Origin: Octopus vulgaris
Taxonomy: Eukaryota
Assembly: GCA_951406725.2 (NCBI GenBank)
Contig: OX597821.1
Span: 118,172,001 to 118,236,000, forward strand
Direction: 5' to 3'
Length of the DNA: 64,000 bases
A program made the translations under genes and the position numbers. Below the pieces are notes generated by a model. The model had not been told where the DNA came from and ran no database searches. It worked only from the letters and a program-made list of their open reading frames with translations. Positions within the stretch are counted from its first letter, which is position 1; every line of letters starts with the position of its first letter. Below are positions 30,501 to 60,814 of this stretch, piece after piece.

Positions 30501-31352
30501 GGTCTCGGAGGAGATAGTGTTAGTTGAAGACTACTAAAACCTGCCATACCCAGACAACTTCAGCTTCATATATATAGAGATTATTTAGCATTTTAATGGA
30601 CTAATAGATACATTCCATTATTTAGAGAAAAAGTATTAGATATATAAAAAAATTATAGTGTACTTCCTTCTAAAAGAAATTTAAATATGTTTGCTAAAAA
30701 TTAAAAGATATCAGGTATTTTTATAAAATCGGGTGTGTATTTCTAAGCAATAATTGTAAATAAGGATAACGAGTAATCTCCCTTCATTCATGTGGGTAAA
30801 TTGTTTCTAAGGATATTATTATGATGAAAATTATGATTTCTTTTACTAGAGAAGTTATATTTATAAAATTTGTGGACACACACACACACACACACACACA
30901 TACACACACACATTCATCATCATCATCATCATCGTTTAACGTCGGCTTTCCATGCTGGCATGTGTTGGATGGTTTGACTGAGGACTGGCAAGCCAGGAGG
31001 CTGCACCAGGATCCAATCTGATTTAGTAAGTTTTCAACAGCTGGATGCCTTTCCTAATGCCAACCACTCTGAGAGTGTAGTGGGTGTACTCTTGGAGTGG
31101 TAAATCATAAATCTGAAAGAGGAGCACACTCTACATTATAGAGCAGAAGAGTATATAGATAAAAATAGTTATGGCTGGTCTACAGGATTACCCTGGGTTT
31201 CACATCCATAAAGCGCTGAGCTTTACAGCATTTCTTCAGACCCTAAAATCCATTGGCCTTAAGCCAACAGGTTTTGGGATCTGAAGAAATGCTGTGAAGT
31301 TAAGCTCTTTATGGACATGAAACCCAGGGTAACCCCCAGGGACTAGCCATAT

Positions 31353-31384
<32 letters not shown>

Positions 31385-34300
31385 TTATTTATTTATCAAT
31401 CTATCTATCAATCTATCTATCTAATAACCTATCTATCTATCTCTTTCTCTCTCTTTCTCTCTTTATGTTTGTCTTTTCTCTCACTTTCTCTTTACCACAC
31501 ACACACACACACACACACAAAATGTGTTTTTTTTTCAATTTCCATTGACGAAATCCCACTCACAAGGCTTTGGTCATCCCAGTGCTTTAATAGAAGACAC
31601 TTGCTTGAGGTGCCATACGGAGGGATTGAACCCAAGACGATACAGTTGGGAAGCAAGTTCTTAACCACTCAGTCATACCAGCTCCTTTTATTTTTGGTCT
31701 GTTTGCTACTCAATTCCCGACTCTTTTCCTTCCACTGCACATGAAATTCTTCTTACTTCATTTCCTATTCTCTTACTAATTGCATCTATTTTAATCCTTT
31801 TCTTTTTTCTCTTTCAGTAAATTATATACGTTTTGGTTGTATATTCGAGCTTTATTCGTCTCAGAGCTGAATGGAACCAGTCGAAGAACACTAGATACCG
31901 ATTTGTTTTATCGCGTTTCTTTCTTAGTCGCCTATCCACCTACAGGGTATGTGTCCCCTTCATGTTTTTAAGCACATTTATTCATGCTAGAAAACTGAAT
32001 GCTTGAGACGTGTGTTAAACCCTACAAATTTGTTATGAATCCGTAAGGTTCTGATCAGATCTGTTGACATTGATCTGGTTTTTGCTTTTTAGGAAATTAT
32101 ATCTACTTTCACACAATGAACACTAAAAATCAATAAGTCAGTAAAACTTTGTGTATCATCTAAGACATTCCAAGTATGACCATTCCATCATTCTCCCCCC
32201 CCCCCAGCATTCCCAATGTAGCCTTTCTTTTTCAGAAAGTGGGATGGGATTTGAGGAGGATTTTGATTGTAATTTTTAGCAGGACAGACAACCCTGTACA
32301 AGTCCGTTCATTATAAAACGGCTGATGAACCCTTTTAATACCAACCCGGCTGAAACTACCTCTGGATCTGTAGTACAAATATCTTGCTTTCCTAACTTCT
32401 GAATTAAAATCTTGCACCAAATTTAAGTCAGAATTCATGTTCCTAACATTAGCTTAATGATAACGAAGTTATTTTACCAAATTCTTTGTTATATTTAAAA
32501 TGAATTGAAAGAATCACAGAGCATCTCTTATACAAGAATTTGGTAAGAGAAGGGTCAAATATTGTCAGTCGTTGGGTGCCAGCATGACCATGTGATTGAG
32601 AAGTTTGCTTTGCAGTCAAGGGATTCTGGATGCAATCCTTTTCTGTGGAACCCGGAGCAAATAACTTCTACTATAGACTTTGTGTGAGCCAAACCTTGTC
32701 AATGACACTGGATCGGCAGAAACTATGGGAAAGCTGGAAATAATGAATTATGAAACTCGTTAGCACCTCAGGCGAAATGCTTAGCAGCATAACAGAATTT
32801 CTTCTCACTCTTTACGTTCTGAGTTCAGATCCCATTGAGGTCAGCTTGGCCTTTCATCCTTTCTGGATTAATAAAATAAAGTACCAGTCATATACTGGAG
32901 TCAGTGTGACTGCTCCTCATATCTAAGTTTGAACCCTCCAATCAACTGGCATCCATTTTGGGTTAATAAAATAAAGTAGTGGTCAAGAGCTGGAGCCAAT
33001 GTGACTGACTCCTCATTTCTAAGCCTGAATCCGCCAATGGACTGGCATCCCATTCAGGGGAAATGTTGTGCTCTTGGTCACTTATATGCTATGGAAATTG
33101 CGTAACCAGTCTTATCAGTCGTAGGTTTCAAGAAAATCTTGTTTGAAAAATGCAAGAACTGATCAAAGAGATGATATATATATATATTTCAGGTAACTTT
33201 TAGTGGTACAGTTCTATATTTAAGAGATGAGGAATTATGTATATTATTTACATTATTTACATTTGATGGATATTTGTCCTCATCTTGTTTGTTGTTAACA
33301 CAACATTTCGGCTGATGTACCTTCCAGCTGGATGAGGACAAATATCCATCAAATGTAAATAATGTAACTTTTAGTGGCTGTCCACTCTTTAGCAAGTCCA
33401 GTTCTCTGCTTTGAGAACTTAATACCTCAGTATGCAAGAATTGTAGGTGTTTTCCTCCCTTCTCATCCCCTCTTCAAGAATTCTGGAAACCCTAGAAAAG
33501 CAGTTGACATCACCCTAAAAATTCTGTCATTAATTTTGATACCATTAATAATAATCGGCTTCACCAGAAAGTAAATTATTTATATCTCTTCTGGAAGTGT
33601 GGTGAAGCTGGGGAGGAATATGAAGTCAGTCCTGGCTGCGAATAAATTCAGAAACTGGAGAGTTGGTGCTAAATGTTCAACTGACATCTTCATGCACAAT
33701 GAGTTATAATAGAAGTTTATTGACAGGAAGGGACAGAAACCAGTTCACAGGTTGCAGATCATCCAGTTCTTAGTACCAAGCCCAGGGTACCTAACTCACA
33801 ACAGCCTTGTTCACTTAGCCAGAAAATTTACTGATTAGTTTGTGGTTAGCTCAAAGTACTGAGCTTCAATTTTCCATCATCATCATCATCATCATTATTA
33901 TATTCCTTATTAGGGTGATGAATTAGCAAAATTGTTAGATAATTAGGAAGAATGTCTTGGGATATATGTTCTAGCTTGCTACACTCAGAGTTCCAGAGCC
34001 ACCAAGTTCAACTTTACCTTTCGGTCCCTCTTAGATAGTTAAAAATCAAGTACTGGCATCAATATAGTCTAATAACAGGTGGAGAGCTGGCAGGAAAAGT
34101 ACCAGTTGCATACTGGGGGTCAATCTAATTGACTGCCCCACCTCCCCCAAAATTTCAGGCCTTGTGCCTAGAGTAGAAAAGACTATAATCAACCTGCACC
34201 CTGCCCTTAAAAACGGCTGGTCTTGGACCAACGTTTGAAACTGCTATGCTCATCATTTTCCTTACCATTTTTTTATCAATTTCATTTTCGTTATTCTCTT

Positions 34301-34613
34301 CCTCATCACTTTGATAAATACAATTAATCATTCTTTTTAAAGGTACTTGTACTTTATCGATATTCCCTCGAAAGCATGGATAGGAAGGATTGGCATGGAT
34401 GGCTCAAACTATGAACGTTTGATCATAGATGGTCTCGGCTTACCAACTGGTTTAACTATTGATTTCGAGAGTCAACGGATGTGGTGGGCAGATGCCCACT
34501 TTGATGCGATCGAGTAAGTATTCTTTGTTTGGAGTTTGCATTTCTGTAAAATATTTATTTATTCCGTTACCATGAACAAATTTAGCAAACAGGAACTGTA
34601 TGGAAGCCCATTG

Positions 34614-34652
<39 letters not shown>

Positions 34653-37600
34653 GGGCCTTAGAGTTAATTTAGCAAAAACCAAAGTCTTAGTAAATAGTAA
34701 AGCAGACAAATCACAAATCCCCTCGGGTAGATGGCCCTGTTCAATACGTAGAAGAGGTGTGAGTAGAAATCCCATAAGATGTACTCAGTGTAAGCTATGG
34801 ACACATAAGAGGTGCAACAATATCAGAGGAAGGTTAACAGGGAACCTATTTTTTTTTTGTGTGTGTGTTTGGAAGGTGCACAAGTGCAGTAAACACTAGA
34901 AATGCACAGAAAATCCTGTCCATTAGATGCCTGAGGGGATACCTAGAATTACTTTATAGCTTCTGTTACCTGGGTAACCAAGTCAGTAGCAAAGTTGGAT
35001 GCTCTGAGAAGATAGCTGCTAGACTAAGAATAGGCTGGGCAAAGTTCAGACAGTTTCTACTTTTGTTGGTAACTAAAAGCCTCCCCCCCCCCAGGGTGAA
35101 AGGAAGACTGTATGATGTCTGTGTATGAACAGCTATACTATACTGCAATGGAACATGTGCTGTGACCACTGAGGACATGTGAAGGCTTGGGAAAATGAGG
35201 CTAAATGTGACAGACAGATGTGTGTGTGTACATTGAGGTTACTTAATGTAGTGGTCAGATGTGGAGCATCACCATAGGTCAAATGCAGGATGATACAGCA
35301 TAATAACAACATTGAAGAGGAAAAGAATAATATTCACAAATTTATTTGCTGGCAGTGTTTTGTAACACAGACATAGGAGTGATCGCCAATAGTAACGGTG
35401 CATTGGTAGCTCACTGGTGGTTGTTAGTGTGGAGGCTGTGCGTTTTGTTGATGGAGAGGAAGAAAGGATTACGTTGTCCCTTTCCATTTGGCTGATGCTG
35501 TTGCTCCTGGTTAAGGGCTGACACGACTAGCAATGTGAGCTCTCTATTGGTCAGCTGAAGCAAAGATGGTGAGAGAAAGATAATCTCAGTTATATAGGGT
35601 ATGACCTGGAGGTAGGTGAGACCTAAAACAAAGATCCTAAGGGGTCAGATGTTTCACATTAATCTCTCAGCATGGAGATAAAGCACAAAGGAGTCAGATA
35701 GTCGTCTGATGAGCAATGAGTGTGTAGTTTCGGTTTCAAATCTCAGTTAGGCAGGACTAAGTGAGCTCTGACACTAGTGTGCTTTGCTGGATGGGCAATG
35801 GTCAGTATGCATGTATGATAGTGTCTTGAGAGAAAAATTGGGCATAAGAGGCATCAGGTGTGGTGTGCAAGAGAGACGACTGCATTGGTATGGTCGTGGG
35901 ATGTGTGTGGATGTGGACAGCTGTGTGAAGAAGTTGGAGGGGGAAGCTGTGGAAGAGAGAGACCCAGGAAGACATGGGATGCGTTGGTGAAGCATGATCT
36001 TCTTCAAGTGTTGGGCCCCACATAGGTGATGACAAGTGACTGCAACCTATTGGTGATATTCTCTGCTTGAGAAAACTTATTAAACCAAGTGAAGTTCTAG
36101 TCATGTCCAGTGCTAGTGTCATGTCATTGGCGCCCATGCCAGTGGTATGGGAAAGAACTCATGCCAGTGGCATGCAGAAAGTGACCATTTCACTCTTGGA
36201 ATGGCTGTCGTTAGGAAGGGCATCCAGCTGTAGAAACCATGTCAAATCAGACTGGAATTTGGTGGAGCTCTCTGGCTTACCAATTCCAGTCAAACCATCA
36301 AATCCATGCCAGCATAGAAGGTAGATGTTAAACGATGATGATGAAGATTATATATATGTGTATGTATATATATATATATATCACACATCATCTTCACATA
36401 CACACTCAAGTTTGCACACACACTTTATCCAGATCCCTTCCGTTGAAAGATTCCTTTCAGTTAATTTGACATGTGAAACCCTTAATCCAAACACATTTCT
36501 TTTTTCTCTCTCAATACTACCCCCTTCTCAACTGACGGGGTTTTGTCTTGCAAGGTTCTTGGTGACCCTGTCGGTGCTGGTGCCACGTAAAATGCACCCA
36601 GTACACTCTGTCAAGTGGCTGGAGTTAGAAAGGACATTCAGCTTTAAAAACCACGTGTAAACTCCCAGCCTCTCGAGCTCCTGTCAAACTATCCAATCCA
36701 TGCCAGCATGGAAAACAAATGTTAAATGATGTCTGAGTTCAAATTCTACCAAAGGTCGACTTTGCCCTTCATCCTTTTGGAGTCGATAAATTAAGTACCA
36801 GTTATGTGCTGGGGTCGATGTAATTGACTCTACCTTTCCCTCAAATTTCAGGCCTTGCACCTATTGTAGAAAGGATTATTATTATTATTATTTTTATTGT
36901 TATTGGGTCAATGAGGTGTGTTCACAAAATCTTTAACACAGCAGACAAAATGCTTTGTGGCATTTCTTCTGGCTCCTTACATTCTGAGTTCAAATTCTAA
37001 TGAGGTTGGTTTCATCTTTCATTTGCAGTTTCGGTAATAATAAGTAGCAGGTGGTGGGGTGCCAACGTAATTCGTTAACTGTCTTCTCTAAAATTGATGG
37101 CCTTCTTCCATGACTGATTGTCATTATACAACAGAACAAATTCCCACATGGAGCAGCCATTTGTTATTAATCCTTTTGCTTTTGTAGATATGCCAGTTTG
37201 GATGGTACTCACAGACAAACGGTAATGAAAGAGAATGTACCATTCGTTCACTCACTTGCAGTGTTTGAAGACTGGATCTACTGGACAGACTCGAGCCGCC
37301 TGAGCATAGAAAAAGCACACAAATTCACTGGACGGAACCATACTATTCTACGGAATATGACTCACCAACCAAGTATCCTTATTGTGTTTCACTCATTACG
37401 ACAAAAGCAATGTTAGTGTCTTACGGTATTTCTATGTTGCATATTAATATGTTTTACCTTTCTTTTATCAGACTTGTTTCAGTCGTTAGACTGTGGCCAC
37501 GCTGGGGCATCACCTTGAAGAATTTTTAGTTGATTGAATTGATCCTGGAACCTATTATTTTGAAGCCTGATACTTATACTGTCGGTATCTTTTACGGGGA

Positions 37601-39806
37601 CATAAACACACCATCACTGGTTGTCAACTAATGGTGGGGGATAAACAGTCAAAGAAACACATAGATATACATACATACCACAGGCTTCATTTGGTTTCCA
37701 CAGGCCAAATCCACTCACAAGGTTTGGGTCATACTGAGGCTATAGTAGAAGACACTTATACAAGGTGCCACACAGTGGAGCTGAACCTGGAACCATGTGG
37801 CTTGGAAGTAAACTTCTTACCACAGCCACACCTACACCTATATGCTTAAAATATATCATTCATAGCTTTTTATACTTTGAACTCCAGCATTCATATTTTT
37901 TGCAATGTAAGTAACGTACACTTCTCACTGGTATCAACAAAGCTTCTTAAAGGGAAGGGGAAAATTTTGAAAAATTGTCTTGGTCCAATGGTAAAACGTC
38001 TGTCGTGTTTACAAAAAGAATTTAAATCTCACAGATACCCTTGACCTTTTTCTATCCATGGGAACGTTTAATCCATTATTTAAATGTTATTGTTTATTGC
38101 ATTATCTACAGCAAGTTCTACCATCAAAAATGAAATACTTGTAACATTTATGGTATATATACACACACACATATATGCTAGTATATATTTATACACACAT
38201 ACACACACATGCACGCACACACACGCACACACACACTTCGTTTCTTCTTGTTTTCATTCAAATCCACTCTCAAAACTTTAACCAACCCAAGTCTATTGTA
38301 GAAGATACTTGCCCAAGTTACCGAATGTCCCATGCAGAGGGATTGAACTGAAGAACCATACTTGTTTCTTATACATTTATAACATGTTATTTATATAATT
38401 CCTGTGAATTTACAGTATAAAGTTAACTTTATTAGTTTCTAGGGAAAACATGACTGTCCCCAATGAAAACATACGAACCCACCATTTCCAATGACTTTCA
38501 AGAACCAGCTGTTCTGTTTGTAGTACACCACCCCCAACAGATTGCAGTGAGTCTCTTTGGCAATATCTACTCAATGTCAGGGACTTTTCCCCACTCCCTC
38601 ATAGAATAATAATGCTTATGTAAGCCTATTGTGGAATAATTCCTAAAATTAAATTTCAAATGTCTCTTTATGCTGTAATGTAAATGCAGGCAGGGCCAAA
38701 GCCTTCACAGTGGTACTCAGCCAGGCCACACCCGAAAACCGAAACAAGGAAGAGCTAAAAATAAGTAATAGAAAATAAGGATTTCATCAATTACATAATT
38801 TTGTAGTCACCATTATCATCATCATCATCACCATTTAGCATCTGTTGTCCATGCTGGCATGGGTTGGACGGTTTGACCAGGACCCTAGTCTGATTTGGCA
38901 TGATTTTTATGGCTGAATGCCCTTCCTAACACCAACCACTCCAAGAGTGTAAGGGGTGCTTTTATGTGCCACTGGCACAGGTGCCAGTTTGCATGATACC
39001 AGTATCTGCCATGAATGTGATTTCACTTGCCTTTGATAGGTTTTCTTCTCAAGCACAGCATATTGCCAAAAGTCTTGATCATTTGTCTTGCCTCCATGAG
39101 GTCTTGGTCATTTGTCTTGCCCCCATGAGGTCTTGATCATTTGTCACTGCCTCCATGAGGTCTTGGTCATTTGCCTTGCCTCAATGAATTCTTGGTCATT
39201 TGTCATACCTCCATGAAGTCTTGATAATTTGTCTTGCCTCCATGAGGTCTTGGTCATTTGGCTTGCCTCCATGAAGTCTTGGTCATTTGTCTTGCCTCCA
39301 TGAGGTCTTGGTCTTTTGTCTTGCCTCCATGAATTCTTGCTCATTTTGTCTTACCTCTATAAGTTCTTGGCCATTTGTCTTGTCTCCGTGAGTATGTATA
39401 CAAAATCAACTGAATTAGACCAACAAATTAAAAACCTTGAGCTATTCTCAGTTTACCACCAAATGACAAATTTATCTTTTGTTCTTCCTGGTTAGGTAAA
39501 ATAAATTCCTCCTCAGATAAGGAAAAATTTGTGCAGTGTGGGGGCCCAGCATGTCAAAGAATAGACCCAAAATTTTCCTCTGCATGTATTGTAAAAGTAA
39601 ACTGAAAGAGATCAAGTTAGGGTTTGCACTCCAGCTTCATAAAGACCCTCACCAACAATCACTACCCAAACAGAGTCATGGGTTGGACGGTTGTCACCTG
39701 AGTGGTGCAAAGGTGTCAACCACCAGGAAGAAGGAATCACCAACAAACAGCAGATGCAGTGATGCACTGTTACATCATGTGCCCCCATACCACGACCACC
39801 ACCACC

Positions 39807-39853
<47 letters not shown>

Positions 39854-41591
39854 ACAATTCAAATTTATTGTTTTGTGTCTTATCTTTATATTTCTTATTT
39901 GTTTATTACAGATAAAAATCCTTGCGGATCCAATAATGGTGGATGCAGCCACCATTGCCTCCATTCACCACCAGATGACTATGTCTGTGCATGTCCAGAC
40001 CATTTTCTCTTGGATGCAGATAACAAGACATGCGTTGCCAATTGCAGCACTTCTCAGTTCCGTTGTGGAAAGGGCGATGATCGATGTATTCCATTCTTTT
40101 ATAGATGTGACAAAGATGTCGACTGCCATGATGGCTCCGATGAATTAAACTGTCGTAAGAATATTAAAATAATAATCATAAACAATATTAAAATAATAAT
40201 CATCATCATCCTCAACATCACCATCATCAATATCATCATCATCATCATCATTTAATATCCATTGTCCATGGGTTGGATGGTTTGACCAGGGCTGGTAAGC
40301 TGAGGGACCACACCAGACTCCAGTCTGATTTGGCGTGGTTTCTATGGCTGGATGCCCTTACTAATGCAAACGACTCTGAGAGCATAATAGGTGCCTTTTT
40401 GTGCCACCAGCATGGGTGCCAGTTGTGTGACACCAATATCTGCCACAGCTACGATTTCGCTTGGCTTGATGGGTCTTCTGCTCAAGAGCAGCGTATTGCC
40501 AGGGGTTTCTCTCATTTGTCATTGTCCCTGTGAGGATCAACACTTGAAAGGTGATTTTTACGTGCCACTGGTATCAGCCACATTACCTCCATAAGGCCCA
40601 ATGCACAAAAGGTGCTTCTTATGTGTCACTGGCACGGGTGCCAGTTACAGGACACCAGAATCAGCCATGACCATGATTCCACTCAGCTTGACATGTCTTC
40701 TCCTGCATGACATATCACCAAAGATCTTGGTCACCAGTCATTGCCTCCATGAGGCCCAATGTTTGAAGATCATGCTTCTCCCCATCTTGCAGTGTCTTCC
40801 TGGCTCTATCTCTTTCACAGGTTCTCTCCACAGTTAGAGATCAGCACTTCTTTACACATCTGTCCTCATACATATCACATGACCATACCAGCGCAGTTGT
40901 CTCTCTTGCACATCACATCTGATGCCTCTTCTGCCCAACTTTTCTCTCAAGATTCTTATACCCTGTCGTACATGCACACTGGCATCCAAAAAAGTGTGCT
41001 GCTAGCTTAATTTATTTCCTGCCTACACATGTCCTCAGCAGTCACAATCCATGTTTCACTGCTGTGTAGCATAGCCGTTCACACACAGGCATCATACAGT
41101 TTGCTTCTCACTCTGAGAGAGAGGCCCTTTGTTGCAAACAGAAGTAGGAGGTCTCTGAACTTTGCCCAGCCTATTCTTGTTCTTGCAGCTACACTCTCAG
41201 AGCATCCATCCCCACTACTGACTTGGTCACCTAGGTAACGGAAGCCATGAACTACCTCTAGCTTACCCACCTGGCATTTGTTGGAGTGTATTTTCTGTAC
41301 ATTTTTAGTGTTTATTGTACCTGTGCACCTTCCACACCCAAAAACTATTTTTGCCAATTAACCTTTCTCTGATATTGCTGTACCTCGAATGTGTCCAGAA
41401 CGTGCACCAGGTACATCTTACGGAATTTCTATCTATGCCTTTCCTACAGATTGAGCAGAGCCATCTACCTGAAGAGATCAGTGATTTGTCTGCTTTCCTA
41501 CTTACTAAGACTTTGGTTTTTGCTAGATTAACTGTAAGGTCCTTCGATTCTAGATCTTGCTTCCACACCTGAAATTTCTTCTCTTGTACTG

Positions 41592-41649
<58 letters not shown>

Positions 41650-41885
41650 GTAGTGAAAGAGGGAATGGTGTTTCCATGCACGAAAAAGTATATAGGAAAA
41701 TGTGTTGCTGAAAATGCACTTCAAAAACTCGTGAATGTTTAAAATACATTTATTTACATATGTTGAAACTAGTTTGGTACATATGTAAATAAATGTATTT
41801 TAAACACTCACGAGTTTTTGAAATTTAAGTGCATTTTCAGCAACACATTTTCCTATATATATATGTATATATGTATGTATGTATG

Positions 41886-41958
<73 letters not shown>

Positions 41959-42999: not shown

Positions 43000-43058
<59 letters not shown>

Positions 43059-43250
43059 TATATACTATATATATATATGCATTATTCAAAGGAATTCCAA
43101 CTCTGTCTGTTTTTTATGTTTTATTTATATTCTTTATAATATTAATGTAGAATATTGAATATAAAATATTAAGGGACTAGTATACTTTCTTGCATTAAAG
43201 CAGTCTTCAAGTTCCCAGGTTGTGACAGGAGTGTTTCAATATATACATAC

Positions 43251-43311
<61 letters not shown>

Positions 43312-44944
43312 TAGTGTATGAGAAAAAGAAAACAGAGACACTGGCATATAGGCATCAATTCGTTAGAACATAATCCAATTCTAAACACTATCAAAGTCAA
43401 TTTCACCAACAATTGTTTCCATGCCCAATTAATTTAAGAAATTAAACTAAATTAAATTAAATCATATATCAGTTTCTCTGTTTTCTTTTTCTCATACATA
43501 AAAAATAGTCTACCCGTATCCATCAATGTGAAGCTAACATCTTTTGTTCTTGACTGATACACTGGATAAAACCAGGGAACTTGGATGCTGACATCCCTTT
43601 AAGAAGATTTATATCCTTGATTTGATGATACATAAATACATATTTCTATCTATTTTTTACCTTAGAAATTAAAAATTAAATATTTAATATAATAAATGTG
43701 TTGTAGGAAATAATCCTAATGTTTTAAATTATAATTTAGGTAATGGAGTTATTTCTATAAGAAAAATTATTTATTTATTTCTTAAATAAATATTGTTTGA
43801 CTCTATTTGCTTATCTATTTAACTATTATCGTTAACCTGAAGATTGACTATAATTTTAAATCGAATTTATTTCAATTGAATTTAAACTTAATTGTAATTC
43901 GAATTTAATTGTAGCCATGAAACATACGTAGTGATTTTACATATATTATATATTTATCATTCATTCTATACTTTTTGAGATCTAGTTATAAGTTATATAT
44001 TTAAAAAATATTTATATATATACTAGCAGTATCGCCCGGCGTTGCTCGGGTTTGTAAGGGAAATAACTATATAAGCATTTTTAGAGAGTTATAGCAAAAA
44101 AATGCATTAAAATGGAAAAAATGATGGTAATTTTTTTTTTAATCGTAGACTCATCGTAGACGCGCGCTAATACCCAGAAGGGCTCGATCTGAATCACGAC
44201 TATAAGATACCCGGTTTTGGTTAAACTGCACTGCAAAATGTGGGAGTAGTTAGGAATCTAAATCGTAGGAGACAGACACACAACTTCACTTTTATATATA
44301 AAGACTAGCAGTATCGCCCGGCGTTGCTCGGGTTTGTAAGGGAAATAACTATATAAGCATTTTTAGAGAGTTATAGCCAAAAAATAGCAAAAAATGCATT
44401 AAAAATGGAAAAAAAACGATGGTAAATTTTTTTTAAATCGTTGACTCATCGTAGACATTTTCTGTTTTGGTGTCTTCAAGCCATGAAGTCGTTGTTCTAA
44501 AAGAACGCTGGTCTCCTTGACAACGCTTTACGACGTTGATTTCCTTACACTCCCTTCCCCACAGCTTCACGAGGGAGGGAAGAAGGGGGAGAAGCAACAC
44601 AGGTGCAGGTGTGAGCATGGACGCCAACTCCGCCGCCATCGACACACGGATAAAATATGTCTTAAAATGGAAAAAGATTATGGTAAATTATTTTTAAAAT
44701 CGTAGACTCATCGTAGACACGCGCTAATACTCAGACCGGCTCGATATGAATCACGACTATAAGATACCCGAATTTGGTGAAACTGCACCGCAAAATATGG
44801 GAATAGTTAGGAATCTAAATCGTAGGAGACAGACACTCACACAACTTCACTTTTATATATATAGATATTGGTTATTTATGTATTGGTTTATGTCTATCAC
44901 CGTTTGAGTTGCATAATAGTGGTTTTATCTCTAATTTATATTTC

Positions 44945-44984
<40 letters not shown>

Positions 44985-45688: not shown

Positions 45689-45733
<45 letters not shown>

Positions 45734-46911
45734 TATATACGATGGGCTTCTTTCAGTTTCCGTCTACCAAATCCACTCACAAGGCTTTGGTCAGCCTGAG
45801 GCTATAGCAGAAGACACTTGCCCAAGGTGCCACGCAGTGGGACTGAACCCGGAACCATGTGGTTGGCAAGCAAGCTACTTACCACACAGCCACACTTTTA
45901 AAATTATATTGTAGGGTAAGTGTGAGAGGCCAGATCAGTTCAGTTTCAACATAAAGCTTGTTGCTTATTAAGGCCACAAATGCTCAGTTGAAATACTAAA
46001 GGGTTAAATGGTCTTTTTTTTTTTTCTCAATTCCTTAATTTGGCATCACAAAGCCATTGGATTGCAGCCAGGCTGTGGCTCTGCCTTGCATGGATTAGTC
46101 AAACAAATTAACTAAACCAGACAAGGTGTTGGTGCTTAATCCATCAGCTTCACATAATCACATTACAATAATTAGTTCATCATTTTCATGTTTACATTCT
46201 GCACTTGATTCAGTTTTTGCTCCACAAACCAATATTATTAGGAGTATAGAATGAAACCTCAGTTTCCAAACTTAATTCATTCCTGAATTACAATGGTAAT
46301 AGTTCCAGTTGATTCAATTAATGGAACAGTCTGCTCATGAAACATGCAAGTGGCTGAGTACTCCACAGACATGCATACCCTTAACGCATGAGCTGAATAT
46401 CCAAACCACTCAACCATTACACCATCACTGGAAATGGTGTCCTACCATGGAATGGTATGGAGAAGTGTTTCATGGGAGTTTTGAAGTGTGAATGAGATGC
46501 AAAAGCTGCTACCAGAGAAAGGCTGATGAGTGGAATCAACAGGGGCCAGAAAGGAAATAGTAGCATGCATTCTATTGTCCCCAGGGAGCAGCATTAGAAT
46601 GTAAGGGTCTGTACCCTCATCATCATCATTATCACCATCATCATTTAACGTCCATTTTCCATGCTGGCATGAGTTGGATGGTTTAACCACACCTGGTAAG
46701 GCCAAGGGCCACACCTCGTTCCATTGTCTGTCCTGGCATGGTGTCTACCATTAAAGAAACAGGCATGGCTGTGTGGTAAGAACATTGTTTCCCAGCCACA
46801 TAGTTCCAAGTTCAGTCCCACTATACAGCATTTGGGCAAGTGTCTTCTATTATATCCTTGGGCCAACCAAAGCTTTATCAGTGGATTTAGTAGACAGAAA
46901 CTGAAAGAAGC

Positions 46912-46953
<42 letters not shown>

Positions 46954-49900: not shown

Positions 49901-52900
49901 ACACTTGTAATGTATGTATTACCAGTTCTTTCAATATAGTAGATATTTTCTATTCTTGTTTATGTCTCCTCACAGATGTGTATATTCTAACAAGTTGCTT
50001 CTTAAATTTAACATCTCTCTTGTTCAATAAACTCTGAGTTAAACTTGCAAAGCTGTTTATTTTCTCCTTTTGATTTTTAATGTTTATTTTAGTGGGTTAC
50101 CTAACTATCAGTTTGGTCTCCTGGCTTTTTGCTTGACATTTTATAAGTGTGAAAGGGACTAAAATTTTGATACTATGTATCAAAGGTTCCAACAAGAATA
50201 AGCGGAAAATCAGAGCTTGAGACAGGAAGACACTTTTGACCAATGAGGATTCTGTTTACATAATCAGTTTGATCGGTCACCTCTTCTATCGGTTGAGTAA
50301 AGTGTCATCCAAGCTGATGTTTATTGGTAATTAAACTTATTTTGCAACACTGGTGTGTATTTATCAGCTTTGTTTTTGTTGATAAGAATAATCAGCAAAT
50401 TTTCCTGTGAGTGTGATTTTAGAAAACATACAAAAGTATGCTAAAGATCGGACATAATCTCTTGTGGGAAAGAAATGTAAAATAGAGTTTATCATAAACA
50501 ACAAAAACACTTTGTAATTTAATAGCTTTCAATGTGATACCTGTTAAACAGGAATTATTTTTATTTCATGAAAATTTAATAAAATCTAATCATAAGTAAG
50601 TGAAATTATGCTAAATACAACTAAACTGAAAATCTTTTCTCCCTGGTCATATTGGCAATTCTGAAAACTTTTGGGGGCGAATTTTACACAAGTGGAAGCC
50701 TTTTTTTAACAATTTTTTTCTTGAAAATCACCTGCATAAATTACACAGATGTGCAAATTACATGGGTTTTTATGGTAATTAGTACATTTAGATTGTTGAC
50801 AATCCAGTTATCAGCAGTTGTAAAAATAAGTAAAAATTTTTTATAGCCAAATACCATGGCTGCATGGTTAGAAGCTTGCTTCCCAACCATTTGGTCCTGG
50901 GTTCAGTCCCACTGCATGGTACCTTGGGCAAGTGTCTTCTGTTGTAGCTGCAGGCTTACATAAGCCTTGTAAATGAATTTGGTAGGCGGAAATTGAAAGA
51001 AGGCGGTTGCATATCTGTGTGTGTGCATGCATTCATTCATGCATGCATGTGTGAGTGTATGTGTGCATGCAAGTTTGCATGCATGTGTGTATACCCTTGC
51101 CTTGACATCATGTGATGTTGTAAACAAACATCCCCATCATACAAGTGGGGTTAATATTTATGTCTTGTCTTCCACGTAAACCATGTCTGATTTGGGGGAA
51201 ATCATTTACCTTACTTGGAAACAGGTGAAAGTTGGTGACAGGAAGAGCACCCTGCCGTAAAAAATCTGCCTCAACAAAATTCCATCCGATCCATGCAAGC
51301 ATAGAATAGTGGACGTTAAATGATGATGATGATGATATATGCATCACTAATTCTAATATTGATCTTGGTGAAGGCAGCAAACTGACAGAATCCTCAGTGC
51401 CCCCTGGCCAAAATGATTAGCAACATTCCTTCCAACTTGTTACATTCTAAGTTCGAATTCTGCTGAGGCTGACTTTACTTTTCATCCTTTCTGGGTTGAT
51501 GAAATAAATACCCATTGCTTACTTGGGTTAATGCAATCAACTTGTCCCCCGCCTCCCCTGAAATTTCTGGCCTTGTGCCGAAATTGGAAACCAATGCCGA
51601 TCTTGGTGGAAAGAAGAGTGGATTTTGCATGGAGTTTTTTTTTTTGGTATATTTAATGCTTTTTAAAGTTATGAACCTTTTTTTTCATTTAATTTACAGC
51701 TAATCAAACATGTCCTGCGACTTCGTTCCGATGTGAAACTAATTATCGATGTATACCTTCCACATACGTCTGCGATGGTTACGATAATTGTGGTGACAAT
51801 TCTGATGAAAAACTGAGCAACTGCAAAAAATGTAATGAAACCAAGGAATTCAAATGTAAAAACAATGTCTGCATTCCAAAAACCTGGGTTTGTGATTCTA
51901 AAACTGACTGTCGAGATGGTTCCGATGAAGACACCAGCTTTTGTAGTATGAAATTTTACTCTGTATACTTTAGTTTATTATTATTGTTGTTGTTGCTGTT
52001 GTTGTTGCTGTTCTTGCTGCTGCTGCTGTTTTTGTTGTTGTTGTTGTTGTTGTTTTTGTTGTTGTTGTTGTTGTTGTTAAAGGCTGTGGGCTGGCAGAAT
52101 GATAGCACACTGGGCAAAATGCTTAGCATTCTCTGCTGCTACATTCTGAGTTCAATTTCCACCGAGGTCGACTTTGCCTTTCATCCTTTCAGGGTCGATA
52201 AATTAAGAACCAATGAAATACTGGGAGCAATGTAAACCTGCTTCCTGAACTTGCTGGCCTTGTGCCAAAATGTGAAACCACTATTTTTACCATTAATGTA
52301 GTGAGCTAGCAGAATCATTATCATGCCAGGCAAAATGTCACAAAGCATTTTGCTTGTCTTTACATTCTAAGTTCAAATCCTGCCCAGGTCATCTTTGTCT
52401 TTCATCCTTTCAGGATCAATAAAATAAGTACCAGTCATACTCTGGGGTTGATGTAATTGACTAGCACCTTCCCCTGGAATTGCTGACCTTGTGCCAAGAT
52501 TTGAAATGAATATTATTATCATTAAAGGCAGCGAGCTAACAGAATTGTTAGAATGCTGAGCAAAATGCGATTAAGCCCGAATTTGAAACCAATACAGGTC
52601 ATCATCAACTTAGGACCACAATTGGTTCCGACTGTCTGGTCGTAAGTCGATTTGGTCGTAAGTTGGCCTATAGGCCTACATAGCTTTGTTTTATATTTTT
52701 ACACTCTTAAGAAATACATTCTCAGGTAAATGTCACATGCAGCATTCTGTATGATACTATTATACTGGTGTTAGTCAAAAATTTCTCGTAAAGTCCATCA
52801 GTCATAAGTTGGATAAGTCATAAGTCAACGACGACCTGTATTTTAAAGTTTTTACATTTCTTTTTTATTTATAATCAATGTACATTTTCATGATTGTAAG

Positions 52901-55900
52901 ATTGCGATTTCAATTCCTGGGCTGGGTAACATGTTGTGTTCTTGAGCAAAACACTTCATTTTACATTGGTTCAGTCCACTCCACTGGCAAGAATGAGTAA
53001 TCCTGGAATGGAATGGTGTCCCATTCAGGTGGGGGGAACATACATGCCATGGAAACCAGGGAAGTGGGTCTATATGATTCCATATGATTCAGAGAGGGCC
53101 ATCCCTTTTTTCCTTACTGTACATTTATTTAAACCATTTGATTTAAGAACCTCTTTGTCCCCCTTGTTCTAATAATATTTCTTTTAGGTGAGGGGTTAAA
53201 CACAGGGGAAAAAGAAAAACCTATAAGCATCAAATATTCCCTGCCTTGGCTAAAAACAATCCGGATGAGTTGCATATCTTCTCTCGATTGTCCGTATCTG
53301 TTGGTTGTTTATTCATCATCATCATCAGCAACTTCTGGGCATTACTGTCTTGAATCCATTTGTCCAGTTTTCATGGTGTATATGTGGCCAAGGTCACATC
53401 ATTTCCTTTGAACAGGACACCAGTCAGTCACAAGGTAACTCATTTACAGCCGAGTGGACTGAGGCAGTGTGAAATTATGCATTTTGCTCAAGAACGCAAC
53501 TTACCGCCTGGTGTGGGATTGAAACTATGCTTGCAAAATCACCACTAGACCACATACCCTTTACTGTTCGTTATTTAATTCCTGAAGGCAGGTACAGCTC
53601 TCTGGCTTGCCAGCTCTGGTCAAGCCACCCAACACATGCTGGCATAGGAAATGGGCATTAGACAATGATGATGGTGATGATGGTATTGATGATGATGGTG
53701 GTGGTGGTGGTGGTGGTGGCAGTGGTGGTGGTGAGATGTTCCATTACATACACATACTGCCATCTCATTACACACGTGCTAGCATGGTTGGCACCAGAGT
53801 GGATTTGTTTAACAGTTCTGTATTCAGTTGGAGGACATTGTAGACAAACTGAAAGGGCAGCTTGGTTTTGTGTAGGTCCCACTTGCAGATATCCCGTTAG
53901 GTCACTACCTGTTCCTTCACTGGTTCCCACTTCATCCAGGGACTTTACTTGCTCTTCCTTCACAGAAGCTCTCACCCTGACCCCTGCAATGTTACTAGGA
54001 GTGTCCAACAGAAATATCACACCAAACAGACCTGGAGGATGGAGAAAGAAGTACAAGGGGAAACTGCAAGGAAGATGACTTTTCCCAGAGATCTAAAAAT
54101 TCTTCATCATCTTCTTGATCAACAGCAATTTCTGTGAAATTCACTGGAACCAAAAGAGGAAATCTGATCGTATTCATTATATCTCTTGGTATCCTGTGAA
54201 GATGACATCAAGATATTTTTGGTGGAGTCATATCTGGAAAACTTGCCATGGAGATTAGTTGAACTCACTGTTGTAAGGAAGAAAGCTTTTTAAAGTATGA
54301 AATCTGCTACAAAGGTTGCTGCATAATATTTCAGTGATTGCCACTTTAATAATTGATTAATGAGTAATGAATAACTGAATTGCAGTTTCGTTTCAACAAC
54401 AGATTTTAATTAAAAGTTCAGAAGTTAATATATTGGACACAATGGTTCGATAGAGAACAGCAGGGCAGTTTGGTCCGTAAAGTGTACGGTTAGGTGAACT
54501 GTGTCAATGAAATATCATTGCTCATAATTTACTAAAGGCAAGAAAATTGTTATAAAATATGATTGTGTGACATAATGCAAATGTTGGTGTCTGTGTATTT
54601 TATGTTAACTTTGGAAGAGAGAGCAAGTGAAAAGAAGTGGTTGTGTATACCCTGGGCTGGGAGGCAGCCACCAGTGTCCCCTCTCTGACTGATGCTTTAA
54701 CTGCAGCTCCCTTAAATACTGTAGTATGGGCTCAGAAGAAAAGTGACTGAGTGGTTACTGACTGGTTAGTTATGATCAACGTGAGAAAGAACCAAAGTAA
54801 TTTTCTGCAAAAGGAATTTACATTTTGGCACAAATTTATACATAAAATATTGCACACGTTTTGACCAATCAAAACGATCAGCCCGGTCAGGTGGTGGTGG
54901 TGGTGAGGAGGAGGAGGGGGACAGTGGAAGGGGAGGTGGCAGAGGAGGGGGAGGCAGAGGAGGGGAGGAGGCAGAGGAAAGGAGGAGTCAGAGGTGGAGG
55001 AATAGGCAGAGGAGGAGGCAGAGGCGGAGGAGGAAGCAGAGGCGGAGGTGGAGGATGAGGCAGAGGCGGAGGCAGAGGTGGAGGCAGAGGAGGCGGCGGC
55101 GGCGGCGGAGTTTACTAATTGCTGAGCTAGACTAAAATGCAGGGAAATAAATTAACACACAATAACAAAGAACAGAAAAAAAGCCTCTGACGTCTGACCC
55201 TCTGCCAGTTATTGACAGAACAGTTATGGAAGGTCAATTATTTTGGATTGTTTCACATCTTCCATAATGGAATGCAGAATTCTCCATGAGAAATCTAAAT
55301 CCACTCTGTTGCTAACGACAACAAATGTTCCAGTTGATCCAACCGATGGAACAGCCTGCTCATGAAATTAACATTCAAGCGGCTGAGTACTCCACAGACA
55401 TGCATACACTTAACATAGTTCTCAGGGAGATTCAGTGTGACAAGGCTGGCCCTTTGGATTACAGGGACAAATCATTTTTGCCAGTTGAGTGGACTGGAGT
55501 AACGTGAAATAAAGTGTCTCGATCAAGGACACAGTATGCTGTCAGGAATTGAACTTGTGACCTTGTGGTTGTGAGCTGAATACCCTAAGCACTAAGGCTT
55601 GCACCATCACATGAGAAAGGTATAACTGTAGACATACACTGCAGTATATAAATCTATGTGTTTAGTTATCCTGTAGTGTTGGATGATTAGAATTTATTGG
55701 CAACGATCATTAGGACACCAGGCAAAATGCCTTGTCGTATTTTGCCTGTCCCTACATTGTCAGTTCAAATTCCACCAAGGCTGACTTTGCCTTTCATCCT
55801 TTCAGGGTCAATAAAATAAATGCCTGTTGAGTATTGAGGGCCATTATAATTGAATTAAATATCATTGGGTAAGAGTATAAAAACTGCATCCCTCTGCCAA

Positions 55901-58900
55901 GCCGTGTCAAGCCAATGTGACAAAGCAGGCTCATCCAACTAATATCATCTCAGACTTAGCTTCACGTCAGACTGTGGATGGTGGAGAGAACATGCTGAGG
56001 CCTTTGTCCTCCAGTGCTCTGAACGTAGGCAGTTCAATCCTATCCAATCCAAATTAAGGAACAGAAAATAGGCTTTGGATTACCTTAGATTATAAAGGTT
56101 CATTCTTCATTTTTATCTTCTTTCTATTTTCTTTATCTCGTTTTTTCTCTTCTATCAAAACTTTAGAAAACAAATATCGTGACTGTACTGAATCTGAATT
56201 TCGCTGTGACAACCAAAGATGCATCCTAAAGAAGTGGCGATGTAACTTTTATGACGAATGTCGTGATGGATCTGATGAAAATAACTGTGGTAAGTTTTGG
56301 CTTTTATCTTTTTAGTTTTTTTTTTATTAATCTGGAGGAAGGTCAATGGCCATGGATTTCCCAGGCTCTCTAAAACGGATGAGGTCAATACAGTTGTTCC
56401 ACTTGAACAATTGCAGATGGTGGATGAGAAAAATGAAATCTGGAAAGTAAGTGTTCCAGTGAGAAAGGACCGCTTGAAATAACTAGTGTCAAGCATAGGA
56501 TGACCAAAGTAGGAGGAGTGATGAGCAAGGAAGGAGTGTCTTAATAGAGATACTATGCAATCGACCAGATCTGAGGAACAGAGGCCACTGTAGTATTGAT
56601 AGAAAATTTATCACTCTTTGGGCATACCTAGTGGTATGCCCCTTCGTAGCACTGCTAGGCCCAGTATTTCTGGAAGTTATTCATAATAGTCCCTGACTCA
56701 AAAGTCCCCCTGAACAGACCAGCCAGTTTATTCTCTCCAGTTGCTAGGACTTCCCTGATAATGTCACACACTTACCCTCTTATTATCCTCTATATGTTAC
56801 AAAAGCAGACGTTCCAACAGCATTGTTTATCTGAGCAGTGAGTGCCAGATGATAGGTGCCCAATCTTGGAATTTTCTTGATGCTGTACTGCAGCTCCCAA
56901 CTGTAAAATGTGCCTCATAAAAGGAAGACCACACCCACTCATCAACCAGGAAATTACACAAATGGTGCAGCCTCAGCATGTGTCTGCACATTAACAGCCA
57001 CATATGTTGAGCCTGCCTTCCAAAGCAGGAGAGCCCAGGTTGCTGTTTCGCTTTTGCTCAGTGCACAACCCAGCTTGAATTTGATATTTCTTCTAGTGAG
57101 TTTCCTACTTAAAAAATAGTTTTGGTTTACAAACATTTTGGCATAATAAACAGCCTTCAGGAATAAGTGAAATTCATAAACCAAGGTTCCACTGTCTATG
57201 AAGAATTCTTGATTCTCTAATAGTAATGAAGGGCAGGAATAGTTAAATGCACATTAAAATGCCTTTCAGACTTTACATTATGAAAATGCTCATTTCTTTT
57301 ATATAAGTGCTTTCCAAAATAATCTTGTTGCAGGAATTCCAGATGAATTTCTTTAGGATTCTAAGCAGCATCCATCGAAGTAAATTTAATGAAACAAAAG
57401 TTGCTTTAGAGAAAGTATTTATTCACATGATAAACAAAGCAAATAGTAAAATATTGTTTGGAAAATAATGAATACAATTTTTTAAATTTTTATGAAATTT
57501 TATTAAGAAGAACCTTATTTTCTGGCAGCTTAGAATTTGGTCATGGAAAGCCAAGAGTTTTGCGTGAAACTCTGGGACCTAATTTAGGAAGAACTGCTTT
57601 ATATTATGGAAATGTTTGAGAAGGTGTCTGGCTTAATGGCTGACAGTCGTAAGGATGTGAGTTCGATTCCTGGAAGCACATTGCATCCTTGAGCAAAATC
57701 CTTTATTTCTAGTTGCTGCTCCAGTTCACTCAGCTGGCAAAAATGAGTTCTACCTGTAATTCAAAAGGGACAGCCTTGTCACATACATTGCATCATGCTG
57801 AATCTCCCTGAAAACTATGTGAAGGGCATATGTCTCTGTGGAATACTCAGCCACTTGCCTGATAATTTCACAAGCAGACTATTCTCTTGATCAAATCAAC
57901 TTGAATGCTAGTCATCATAACCTATGGAGAGTCAGGCCTTCCAAGGCTAGTAAAATGGTACAGCTTATTCCAATAAACATTTAACTTTCTCGACATTTAC
58001 AAGACATCATTATTATTGTTGGTTGCTGGTTGAGGTGTTAGTACGCTGGGGGCAAACTGCTGAGCATCCTTTTGTCCATCCATGCACTCTGAGTTCCTGT
58101 TCCACTAAGGATAAGTTTATCTTTCATCCTTTGGGGGTCAGTAAAATAAGTACCAGTCATGCACTGGGATTGATGTAATTGACTTACCCCTACCCCCAAA
58201 ATTGCTGGCCTTGTGCCAAAATTTGAAACCATTATTATTGTTCATTATGTTTTTATTTATTATTTGTGTTATTGTTATTTTTCTAGCTTCTATGAAGTGT
58301 TCTGAAGATGAGTTCAAGTGTGATACCGGTCACTGTATTAAAAAATATCTGACCTGTGATGGTTGGAGAAATTGCAGAGATGCTTCAGACGAAAGAAACT
58401 GCACACCCAAATATGGCGACAGATACTGTCCAATTAACAGATTCCAGTGTAACAACACTGTGAGACATTTCCTTTTTTTTTTTCATTTTAAACCAGCCAA
58501 ATCACCAAAGCCAAGTCATCTGAATATTATTGCCATTTTACCTCTCATTGTCGATATGTTGGTTTTGTTGATGTCATAAGAAATCCATACTCTGTTCTCT
58601 ACTCATCATCACACACACATTCTACACATGCAGGCACCATTATACTGACATGCAACATATGTAGCTATATACATTGCTATAATGTTAATACTATTATTGT
58701 GGTTGCCTATTCGTTTCTCATAAGTGGATAGAGTTGGTTCTATTTGTTTGATGTTAGTGATGGTGAGAGTAATGTTTGTGGTGGAAGTAGTCGTAATTTT
58801 CTTGTTAATTTTCTTGTTATTGCAGTTTAGTCACAAGTCAATCTGCAATGAGATCAAAAATATTTCATACAAGGAAATACAATACATTTTCTCGTATGAT

Positions 58901-59301
58901 TTTTTTTTCCATTTTATAGATTGAGAAGCTTATTTTGTTCATATTATTGCTACTGCTGTTGTTGATAATTTAGGGGGGGTATGTGGGTTGGTAGTGGTGC
59001 TTGTTTTTGGTTTTGTTATTGATATTCATGGTACTGATGGTGAAGTCTCATATATATATATATATATATACATTCTTTATTTAAAAGCAGCAGAAATATA
59101 ACAAAAGAGGTTACTCAGAGTTTCACCTTCCCGTTCATCGGACAGTTTTGCTAACAAAACTGTCCGACGAACGGGAAGGTGAAACTCTGCGTAACACCTT
59201 ATGTTATATTTCTGCTGCTTTTAAATAAAGCATATTACTCTACCTCTGGTATTTGAGTACTCTTTTTTCCACCTTGTTTCACATTTATGTGCTTACTCTG
59301 G

Positions 59302-59338
<37 letters not shown>

Positions 59339-60145
59339 GAAGAGAGTATGAAAAGTCTTGAGCCTCGAAAGAAAAAAACAGAACATGGTACAAGACTTCT
59401 GATGATTTATTTTTCAACATAGTCCCTTTCGATGGATGAACACTTTCTCCAGCAGTGCTGAAGCACCGTTATCCCAGCATAGAAGAACTCTTTTGTTTGA
59501 GACTCCAGAAAACTTCCTACAGTGTCTTTGTCACTGGCAAAATGGCGACCAGCCAGGGCTTTTTTCATTTTCGGGAATAGATAAAAGTCTGAGGTGGGGC
59601 TAAGTCTGGTGAATAAGGCAGATGGGGAACAAGCATGTAACCACAATCTTGAATTGTTGCCATGGCAACTACTGAGGTGTGGGCTGAAGCATTGTCGTGA
59701 TGAAAAAAAGGACTCCTCTGGTGAGCATTCTCTGCCTTTTTTCTTTTATTGTTTCTTGGAGGCATTTCAGTAGCTGAGAATAATACAGCCCTGTCAGGGT
59801 GTGACCTGTTTCAAGGTAATTGATCAACAAGACACCTTGAGAATCCAACAAAACGGACGCCTTGACCTTGCCAGTGGCAGGAATGACCCTGGCCTTCTTT
59901 GGGGTAGGAGAATATGTGTACTTCCACTGCTTTGATTGTTCTTTGGTTTCAGGCTGGTATACTAATAACACAAATATATACTAGTAATACATAATGTATT
60001 ACTAGTATATATTTGTGTAGCACACAGTCTTCGCACATGGGTATGTATTCTTATTATACTCCGTTTTGTGTTGGAATAAATAGACATAATAGAATGTCTA
60101 CCGGCTGATGTATGTCATTTTTGTATCCCCTACATTTTTTCTTTG

Positions 60146-60200
<55 letters not shown>

Positions 60201-60814
60201 ATTAGATGTTGTTTTAACCTCATGAAGGGATGGTTTCATCCAAGGAAATACTGATTCAATACCTAGTATTTGGGGGGAATAAATTTCCTTAAAATAATAG
60301 GTGTATATATAAAAACATATAGCTTATATTCATATAAAAGAAGAAAAAGAAAATGGAGTTTCGGAAGTTAATAATTGTTTATTATTAGCAGTAAATTAAT
60401 CATCATTCCTTACAGCTGTTTCAATTAATACTCAGTAAATTTAAGTAAATATTAAATTCATATAATCTGAGAATAATGTCTTCAGAGGTGAAAAATATAC
60501 CCTTGGATGTTTTGTATGTGTTTATGGATTCCCAATATGGTGATGATAGCGAAGGTGGTGGTGGTAGTGAAGGTGGTGGTGGTAGTGATGATGAATACTT
60601 GTAAGAACCATCTTGAATGCTATAATGAATCCATAAACACATATAAAACATCCAAGGGTATATTTTTTCTCTCTGAAGATATTATTTTCATGTCATATAA
60701 ACTTAATGTTTACTTAAAATTTCTGAGTATTAATTGAAACGGCTGTAAGGGATGATGATTAATTTGGTGTTAATAATAAACAAATCTCCATTTTCTCTTT
60801 TTTCTTTTATACAT

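Follow-up and report, generated by a model that had tools for sequence, protein, structure and literature searches.

Why do the introns of one octopus gene carry several unrelated elements with hammerhead ribozyme cores, most of them beside simple repeats? The question is raised by a 64,000-nt stretch of the Octopus vulgaris genome (GenBank assembly GCA_951406725.2, contig OX597821.1, positions 118,172,001–118,236,000, forward strand), here called the window and numbered from its first letter. Part of a large gene of the LDL-receptor family lies on the + strand of the window, with LDLa, EGF, and LDLb exons in a Pfam scan and one exon 98% identical to an LRP2-like protein of Octopus sinensis. 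Eight type I hammerhead cores were found at five loci (31.2, 43.2, 43.8, 59.1, and 60.4 kb), all between LDL-receptor-family exons and intronic in the LRP2-like gene. These loci are likely the 3′-terminal non-coding ends of several unrelated Hydra-type families of Penelope-like elements (PLEs), probably copied in trans into TA-rich microsatellites. The motif, its arrangement, and its target are observed in the window, and a high 3′-biased depth and variable junctions are observed in one family. The feature is real but mostly known: octopus microsatellites carrying PLE 3′ ends with a Hydra-type layout. An earlier interpretation made from the letters alone (the sequence-only reading) had described the five loci as Penelope-like or retrozyme-like remnants, and it is partly supported.

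Core nucleotides are named by the general hammerhead numbering scheme. The C3 positions of the eight cores are 31281+, 31239−, 43210−, 43837+, 59164+, 59141−, 60673+, and 60485−, and every core that the sequence-only reading had named or implied was recovered. The canonical core CUGANGA…GAAA…NUH is present at 31.2, 43.8, and 60.4 kb. The earlier claim of one shared catalytic core holds for these three loci and needs amendment at the other two: the 59.1 kb cores, and their family, have C at position 4, and the core at 43.2 kb shows either U at position 3 or an inserted base. All eight cores have an extra base after A9 and a 4-bp stem III near the 3′ end. Stem III is self-complementary at four of the five loci, as had been noticed, and the predicted self-dimer is −7 to −12 kcal/mol for intact arms. 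Weak self-dimers are predicted at 43.8 kb (−2.1 kcal/mol) and for the right arm at 59.1 kb (−2.7 kcal/mol).

Three descriptors were run to compare the motifs with chance. The first permitted no extra base before stem II and for this reason found only three cores. The second allowed one extra base there, with filters chosen after the motifs were known. Its strict form found five cores at three loci (mean 0.05–0.13 and maximum 2 in 500 block-wise dinucleotide shuffles). Its loose form found six cores at four loci, including an extra 56.9 kb site (null mean 1.1; four or more cores in 8 of the 500 shuffles). The third was built on the published Hydra-clade layout, made no use of palindromy, and limited stem I to Watson-Crick pairs. 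It found six cores at four loci (null mean 0.16; three or more in 0 of 1,000 shuffles), and its stem I rule rejected both 31.2 kb cores. The motif alone, with stems ignored, was not significant (10 seen; null mean 3.2, maximum 10). Loci rather than cores are counted because the arms of one hairpin are not independent. On that count the stem-requiring descriptors place three to four independent loci above shuffles, and every one of the five loci was accepted by at least one descriptor. Chance is excluded for the set of motifs as a whole.

Three loci form long head-to-head hairpins (31152–31367, 59072–59233, and 60333–60811; blastn identity 77%, 91%, and 82%), which are the sense/antisense pairs of the earlier description. 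In each, the 5′ ends meet centrally and the 3′ ends point outward. At 31.2 kb, the left arm (31095–31259, −) has its core at 31239–31233, GAAA at 31201, its cleavage nucleotide at 31189, and a 31-nt stem II. By eye, an extra tail is present on this arm alone, and the outer boundary of the arm is approximate. The right arm (31260–31349, +; core 31281–31287, GAAA 31319, cleavage nucleotide 31331) runs into (TATC)n. At 59.1 kb, the left arm (59071–59152, −; core 59141–59135, GAAA 59124, cleavage nucleotide 59112) and the right arm (59153–59301, +; core 59164–59170, GAAA 59181, cleavage nucleotide 59193) both end at (TA)n. A 68-nt tail (59234–59301) is carried by the right arm and missing from the left, and a small hairpin (59236–59259, +) lies at its start. 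At 60.4 kb, the left arm (60333–60540, −; core 60485–60479, GAAA 60422, cleavage nucleotide 60411) has a 56-nt stem II region, the right arm (60615–60811, +; core 60673–60679, GAAA 60736, cleavage nucleotide 60747) runs into (CA)n(TA)n, and a one-sided tail is not evident. The loop between these arms (60541–60614) is GGT/GAT-rich, resembles 61422–61460 (E 0.03, weak), and is probably a later insertion.

The two remaining loci are single. The 43.2 kb arm (43079–43238, −; core 43210–43204, GAAA 43189, cleavage nucleotide 43178) is flanked by two TA-rich microsatellites. The 43.8 kb hammerhead (43826–43940, +; core 43837–43843, GAAA 43919, cleavage nucleotide 43930) has a 75-nt stem II region, weak stems I and III, and no opposite arm. 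Two asymmetric foldbacks, absent from the earlier description, were read as hammerhead-related by eye. The first (33248–33367) has a minus-strand long arm with only the 3′ half of a hammerhead-like motif (a stem II strand, GAAA at 33309, and a 4-nt stem III), a 43-nt short arm (40/43 identical), a short palindrome at the junction, and no adjoining microsatellite. The second (43314–43499) adjoins (TA)n; its minus-strand arm has a stem III that is an 8-nt palindrome and GAAA at 43419 but no upstream core, and its inverted end is 35 nt long. A half motif (26542–26612, −), also read by eye and lying outside the range covered by the earlier description, has GAAA at 26594, a perfect 8-nt palindromic stem III, and a cleavage A. 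It ends in a (TATG)n/(TG)n run, and its 5′ part is apparently replaced by another repeat.

Head-to-head inverted copies are present at three of the five loci and in the two further foldbacks. No same-strand tandem units of 100–400 nt were found at any locus in the window. Four of the five loci abut (TA)n, (TATC)n, or (CA)n(TA)n, as had been claimed for most, and the 43.8 kb locus has only a short degenerate TA patch. Three of five locus midpoints lie within 250 nt of such a microsatellite, versus 16% of the window (P about 0.03). Relatedness of tails between loci was examined in 36 pairwise tests. Besides the two 60.4 kb arms, only the pair of the 43.3 kb tail and the 60.4 kb right-arm tail stood out (p 0.003), and this pair is pyrimidine-rich. 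On these comparisons the loci still appear unrelated to each other in sequence.

The layout matches that of Hydra-clade PLEs. The hammerheads tabulated for the Hydra clade by Craig et al. (2021, PMC8557442) have a single additional base after the core, in many cases a second one ahead of GAA, and roughly four stem III pairs around a 0–3-nt centre; (TA)n is the target in 26 of the 27 listed families. The same paper describes PLEs that bear an inverted 5′-truncated copy at their 5′ end and a tail at one end, and whose insertions are heavily 5′-truncated. The window loci share with Hydra-1_Obim, Hydra-2_Amil, and Hydra-1_Crog a type I hammerhead near the 3′ end, a (TA)n target, an additional base following A9 and in many cases one preceding GAA, roughly four base pairs in stem III, and an inverted 5′-truncated copy. 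The octopus family Hydra-1_Obim opens stem II with an A-U type pair and has a 9-nt stem III (PMC8557442), and the 31.2 kb motif resembles it in both respects. The published table has much shorter stem II regions than three of the loci (31, 56, and 75 nt), and one window family differs from the published Hydra-clade PLEs in having C at core position 4. Several families are present here, versus one Hydra family published from octopus. When compared by eye, octopus Naiad 3′ ends and the Hydra-1_Obim end were different from all loci. Small PLE hammerhead variants are reportedly described by Lunse et al., and these may already include such cores.

Other PLE systems offer further points of comparison. 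Minimal PLE hammerheads have little cleavage activity, dimers included, and occur as opposite-strand pairs 100–700 bp apart (Cervera and de la Pena 2014, PMC4209133). As that paper presents them, they have a dimer-suited palindromic stem III, a short stem I, an extra base between 9 and 10.1, and solo copies alongside opposite-strand pairs, all of which are seen here. The window motifs differ from them in that G10.1-C11.1 is found at none of the five loci and stem III is 8–9 nt, where theirs is absent or tiny. Penelope pseudo-long terminal repeats (pLTRs) lie head to head with junction palindromes, for which self-priming was proposed (Arkhipova et al. 2013, PMC3846280). The tail of a PLE lies between two reverse-transcription start sites, and the target is AT-rich (Frangieh et al. 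2024, PMC11167929). The foldbacks share with these inverted pLTRs the head-to-head order, the junction palindrome, and the tail on one arm; cis sequences that suffice for mobilisation in trans are a further likeness (PMC3846280, PMC11167929). They differ in that the insertion consists of the two ends alone and in that the tail is about 68 nt, versus 30–40 nt. Earlier publications already cover PLE ends with hammerheads, pairs on opposite strands, the targeting of microsatellites, and tails on one side. The literature search, with the repeat databases Repbase and Dfam outside its scope, found no account of these octopus families, of a PLE family with a fixed change of U to C at position 4 (U4C), or of the tail hairpin.

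A route to these structures can be proposed from the cited PLE work. A GIY-YIG endonuclease would nick an AT-rich repeat, and reverse transcription would have two possible start sites close to the RNA 3′ end, so that some arms carry a tail and others lack it. Reverse transcription would then halt early, and the early-stopped product would prime an inverted second copy of the same template to give a head-to-head foldback. The PLE reverse transcriptase/endonuclease would act in trans, and the hammerhead would serve the element's own RNA cycle, assisted by dimerization or by protein.

Copies of the 59.1 kb family were followed beyond the window. Contigs from 4 of 24 listed runs aligned to 58900–59380; three are DNA-type runs with three organism labels, and one run (X13) is guessed to be RNA. 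In the three DNA-type runs, depth over both cores together is 4,600–14,500 times that of the unique flank, and tail depth is 25,000–34,000 times. Tail depth is about 2–7 times the summed core depth in three runs and is thus 3′-biased. Depth at the hairpin centre is 0.3–2.4% of arm depth, with the centre at 14–350 times unique depth. Eight of the 15 joints shown (from 106) connect a long arm ending at 59146–59157 to a short arm starting at 59203–59244, four are read as single copies split between arms, and three are of other kinds. None of the 15 returns on the same strand, and some family copies terminate at 59235 in (TA)n. Upstream of the core, loose ends (median length 43–102) share about 10 letters in the three DNA runs, after which agreement is 0.45–0.51, and the 5′ ends of long arms are clustered in a span of about 12 nt. 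Upstream sharing of only about 10 nt suggests a short non-autonomous element. The 59.1 kb family, at least, is probably a short unit (about 150–165 nt) that uses a borrowed enzyme. At the foldback junction, the majority letter at 59151 gives a perfect palindrome in two of the three DNA runs, and the third has another majority letter at 59150.

Majority letters at 59178, 59190, 59197, and 59201 (94–100%) repair stems II, III, and I, which are broken in the window copy; compared with its family, this copy has decayed at four positions of the ribozyme. A stem II change (59127, 59178) is common to both window arms and differs from the family majority (85–97% other letter). Hence either both arms stem from a single template that already carried the damage, or one arm converted the other. 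All variants of 5% or more within the core and stems are CpG transitions. CpG sites are expected to decay by transition. Non-CpG variants occur at 0 of 42 constrained ribozyme positions versus 2 of 7 free positions (Fisher p 0.018). With CpG-context sites counted, p is 0.002 against free positions and 0.04 against the tail. In the tail hairpin (59236–59259), variants occur at three of six unpaired and none of 18 paired positions (p 0.01), and two of the three are in CpG/TpG context. This hairpin starts 43 nt after the cleavage site, and the corresponding distance is 44 nt at 31.2 kb and, by eye, 43, 38, and 47 nt in three Hydra consensus ends from the literature. The tail-hairpin motif is loose, so only its position carries weight.

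Core position 4 stands apart. In the three runs the canonical T reaches at most 6.4%, 5.6%, and 3.2% and C is at least 93%, and the T level is about that of the sister CpG decay product at G5. Position 7 differs between runs (T 11%, 16%, and 72%). A U4C change is reported to lower activity in vitro considerably and yet to support a viroid (cited by Perreault et al. 2011, PMC3088659). The viroid change is a rare variant, whereas here C predominates in a very abundant genomic family under three organism labels. The C4 change is predicted to weaken self-cutting of the 59.1 kb family. In Frangieh et al. (PMC11167929), the ribozyme required protein and catalytic mutants still inserted in vitro; the spread of the family with an activity-lowering core change accords with this insertion without cleavage. 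The 59.1 kb family offers a natural test of the role of the PLE hammerhead, and this abundant family with a fixed core change is the part with the most follow-up value. A broader proposal is put forward tentatively and seems rather unlikely in full. It describes an octopod element of about 160 nt, resembling a short interspersed nuclear element, that depends on PLEs and is present in thousands of copies, with selected stems and fixed U4C. Its fold and a Hydra-wide tail hairpin would be a handle for the PLE protein, cleavage would be dispensable, and its by-products would feed double-stranded RNA (dsRNA) for hyper-editing. If this is true, head-to-head by-products, including those of sister families with very long stem II, would be a major short-loop dsRNA source for octopus hyper-editing, and those sister families would escape standard descriptors.

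Several results weigh against the PLE reading. No PLE open reading frame (ORF) with reverse transcriptase or GIY-YIG domains was found by Pfam in 399 of the 413 stop-to-stop frames of 55 aa or more in the window (14 were excluded as low complexity), and the ORF linkage that the earlier reading proposed to look for is not seen there. Since the window holds no such ORF, its copies are not classed as autonomous elements and the Hydra-type clade is inferred from layout. The sole reverse transcriptase match belongs to a long interspersed nuclear element (LINE) with an AP-endonuclease. An Rfam scan, also suggested earlier, gave 83 matches at E up to 5, none of them to a hammerhead family. No verbatim consensus match was found for the loci: six window motifs were not found in published consensus files, where line breaks could hide a match, and a second six gave unrelated or other-species matches only, so no locus is tied to a named family. 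The copy-level test covers one of the five loci (59.1 kb). Family size is read as thousands to tens of thousands of copies, and contig depth is not copy number. The joints shown are 15 of 106 and the loose ends 24 of 543. The change shared by both arms could come from later gene conversion. Non-CpG variants at 0 of 42 constrained positions versus 6 of 87 in the tail are not significant (p 0.09), so that conservation, examined in one family, stands modestly against free positions and is not significant against the tail. A loose tail-hairpin pattern also matches four sites of other repeats, and the alignment of the 31.2 and 59.1 kb tails is not significant (shuffle p 0.10). Scans of metagenomes and viruses for clade-diagnostic protein motifs yielded only two matches, both in contigs of 63% GC and attributed to chance.

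On the host side, four cores (31281+, 43837+, 59164+, and 60673+) lie on the sense strand of the LRP2-like pre-mRNA, and pairing with the opposite arm had been proposed to mask them. The predicted fold bears this out for three, at 31.2, 59.1, and 60.4 kb (P(paired) 0.85–1.00), in hairpins predicted to be very stable (−118 to −242 kcal/mol). It does not for the 43.8 kb core, which lacks an opposite arm and whose stem III is weak. The three-way junction is absent from the predicted minimum-energy monomer fold of every one of the eight motifs, and no second same-strand copy of any family was found within the window. In a head-to-head foldback the antisense arm is transcribed first, whichever strand is transcribed. 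Cleavage of the host pre-mRNA is unlikely because the sense cores are paired (or weak, at 43.8 kb), no monomer fold is predicted, no same-strand partner is present, and PLE dimers cleave poorly. The intronic copies are predicted to be inactive because the antisense arm comes first and pairs, a same-strand partner is absent, and several copies are mutated. With no dimer partner and partial core decay, there is probably little cleavage to mask.

The hairpins are plausible substrates of ADAR. Octopus is described as having exceptional hyper-editing and unusually many long dsRNA-forming loci, in a study whose repeat analysis did not include octopus. The families here are apparently uncatalogued and could supply this long dsRNA. 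In run X13, A>G changes reach 63% at 59206 and 39% at 59208, with under 1% in the DNA runs. They are not attributed to ADAR, since non-A>G changes of similar depth lie alongside and matched DNA is absent; they may reflect editing or an expressed subfamily. The higher depth of tail than core in X13 was not used, since contigs cannot show levels or ends.

Other origins were weighed against the same evidence. One, possible though doubtful, is that all copies, including the 59.1 kb family, are 5′-truncated autonomous PLEs with no short non-autonomous master. It bears only on the claim of a short unit and leaves the PLE origin untouched. PLE insertions are heavily 5′-truncated in published descriptions, the 60.4 kb arms reach about 55 nt upstream of the core, and the loose-end tables count contigs, so that a few long copies would be hidden. 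The clustering of long-arm 5′ ends and the loss of agreement after about 10 shared letters speak for the short unit. Monomers shed by non-LTR (non-long terminal repeat) retrozymes, which form tandem units of 150–400 nt and replicate through circular RNA, are improbable. Such retrozymes, as presented in PMC7229834 and bioRxiv 10.64898/2026.07.22.740005, resemble the window elements in being short, non-coding, and probably PLE-dependent; they carry type I hammerheads, leave solo monomers behind, and have been argued to derive from PLE ends, and the 59.1 kb unit is likewise short and non-coding. The window copies are not tandem, with no same-strand unit of 100–400 nt at any locus and no same-strand return in the 15 joints shown of 106. 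They lie head to head or solo, end in microsatellites, and show 3′-biased depth and truncation, and the hammerheads of retrozymes are mostly canonical in those sources. Of the earlier pairing of names, Penelope-like is thus kept and narrowed to the Hydra-type layout, and retrozyme-like is set aside for want of tandem units.

Miniature inverted-repeat transposable elements (MITEs) or foldback DNA transposons, moving as whole hairpins with the hammerhead as passenger or coincidence, would account for three long near-perfect hairpins in a TA context and for a 59.1 kb hairpin centre well above unique depth. This is very unlikely: depth spanning the centre is so small a fraction of arm depth that the whole hairpin is not the amplified unit of the 59.1 kb family, whose copies are mostly single or asymmetric arms. 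Arm lengths are unequal, junctions vary between copies, depth climbs toward one end, and coincidence is countered by the exclusion of chance for the set. Equally hard to credit is selection of the foldbacks by the host as regulators of the LRP2-like pre-mRNA, whether as masked ribozyme switches or as editing substrates. It could draw on the four sense-strand cores, the high predicted hairpin stability, and the richness of octopus in dsRNA-forming loci and hyper-editing. The window copy at 59.1 kb is nevertheless decayed relative to its family, each family is present once per strand and can form no dimer in cis, PLE hammerheads are described as poor even as dimers, with one requiring its protein, and editing, if present, requires no selection. 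Insertion of PLE 3′ ends in trans remains the preferred reading.

Other repeats are interspersed with these loci. The AP-endonuclease LINE remnant (21782–24123, +) has a 607-aa frame with Exo_endo_phos followed by RVT_1 and a PHD-like frame, and LINE-related pieces form inverted repeats at about 34.7–35.1, 40.7–41.5, and 42.2–42.6 kb. A Transposase_1 (Mariner-type) fragment (59672–59980, −) is located between the 59.1 and 60.4 kb loci. Minisatellites with units of 26 and 29 nt are present at 19900–20200 and 39072–39392. A common short repeat starts at 26613, where it cuts into the 26.6 kb half motif, and again at 44022, after the 43.8 kb locus and in a TA context. A dispersed repeat at 46333+, 55358+, 48897−, and 46393− matches the loose tail-hairpin pattern. 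The extra 56.9 kb site (56945–56869, −) was accepted by the loose hammerhead descriptor only and is probably due to chance. Near-perfect hairpins without a hammerhead core lie at 15551–15714, 16285–16337, 18911–18958, 41650–41855, and 59968–60018. The 41.7 kb hairpin is flanked by two (TA)n runs and the 15.6 kb hairpin adjoins one; these two may be ends of other PLE families.

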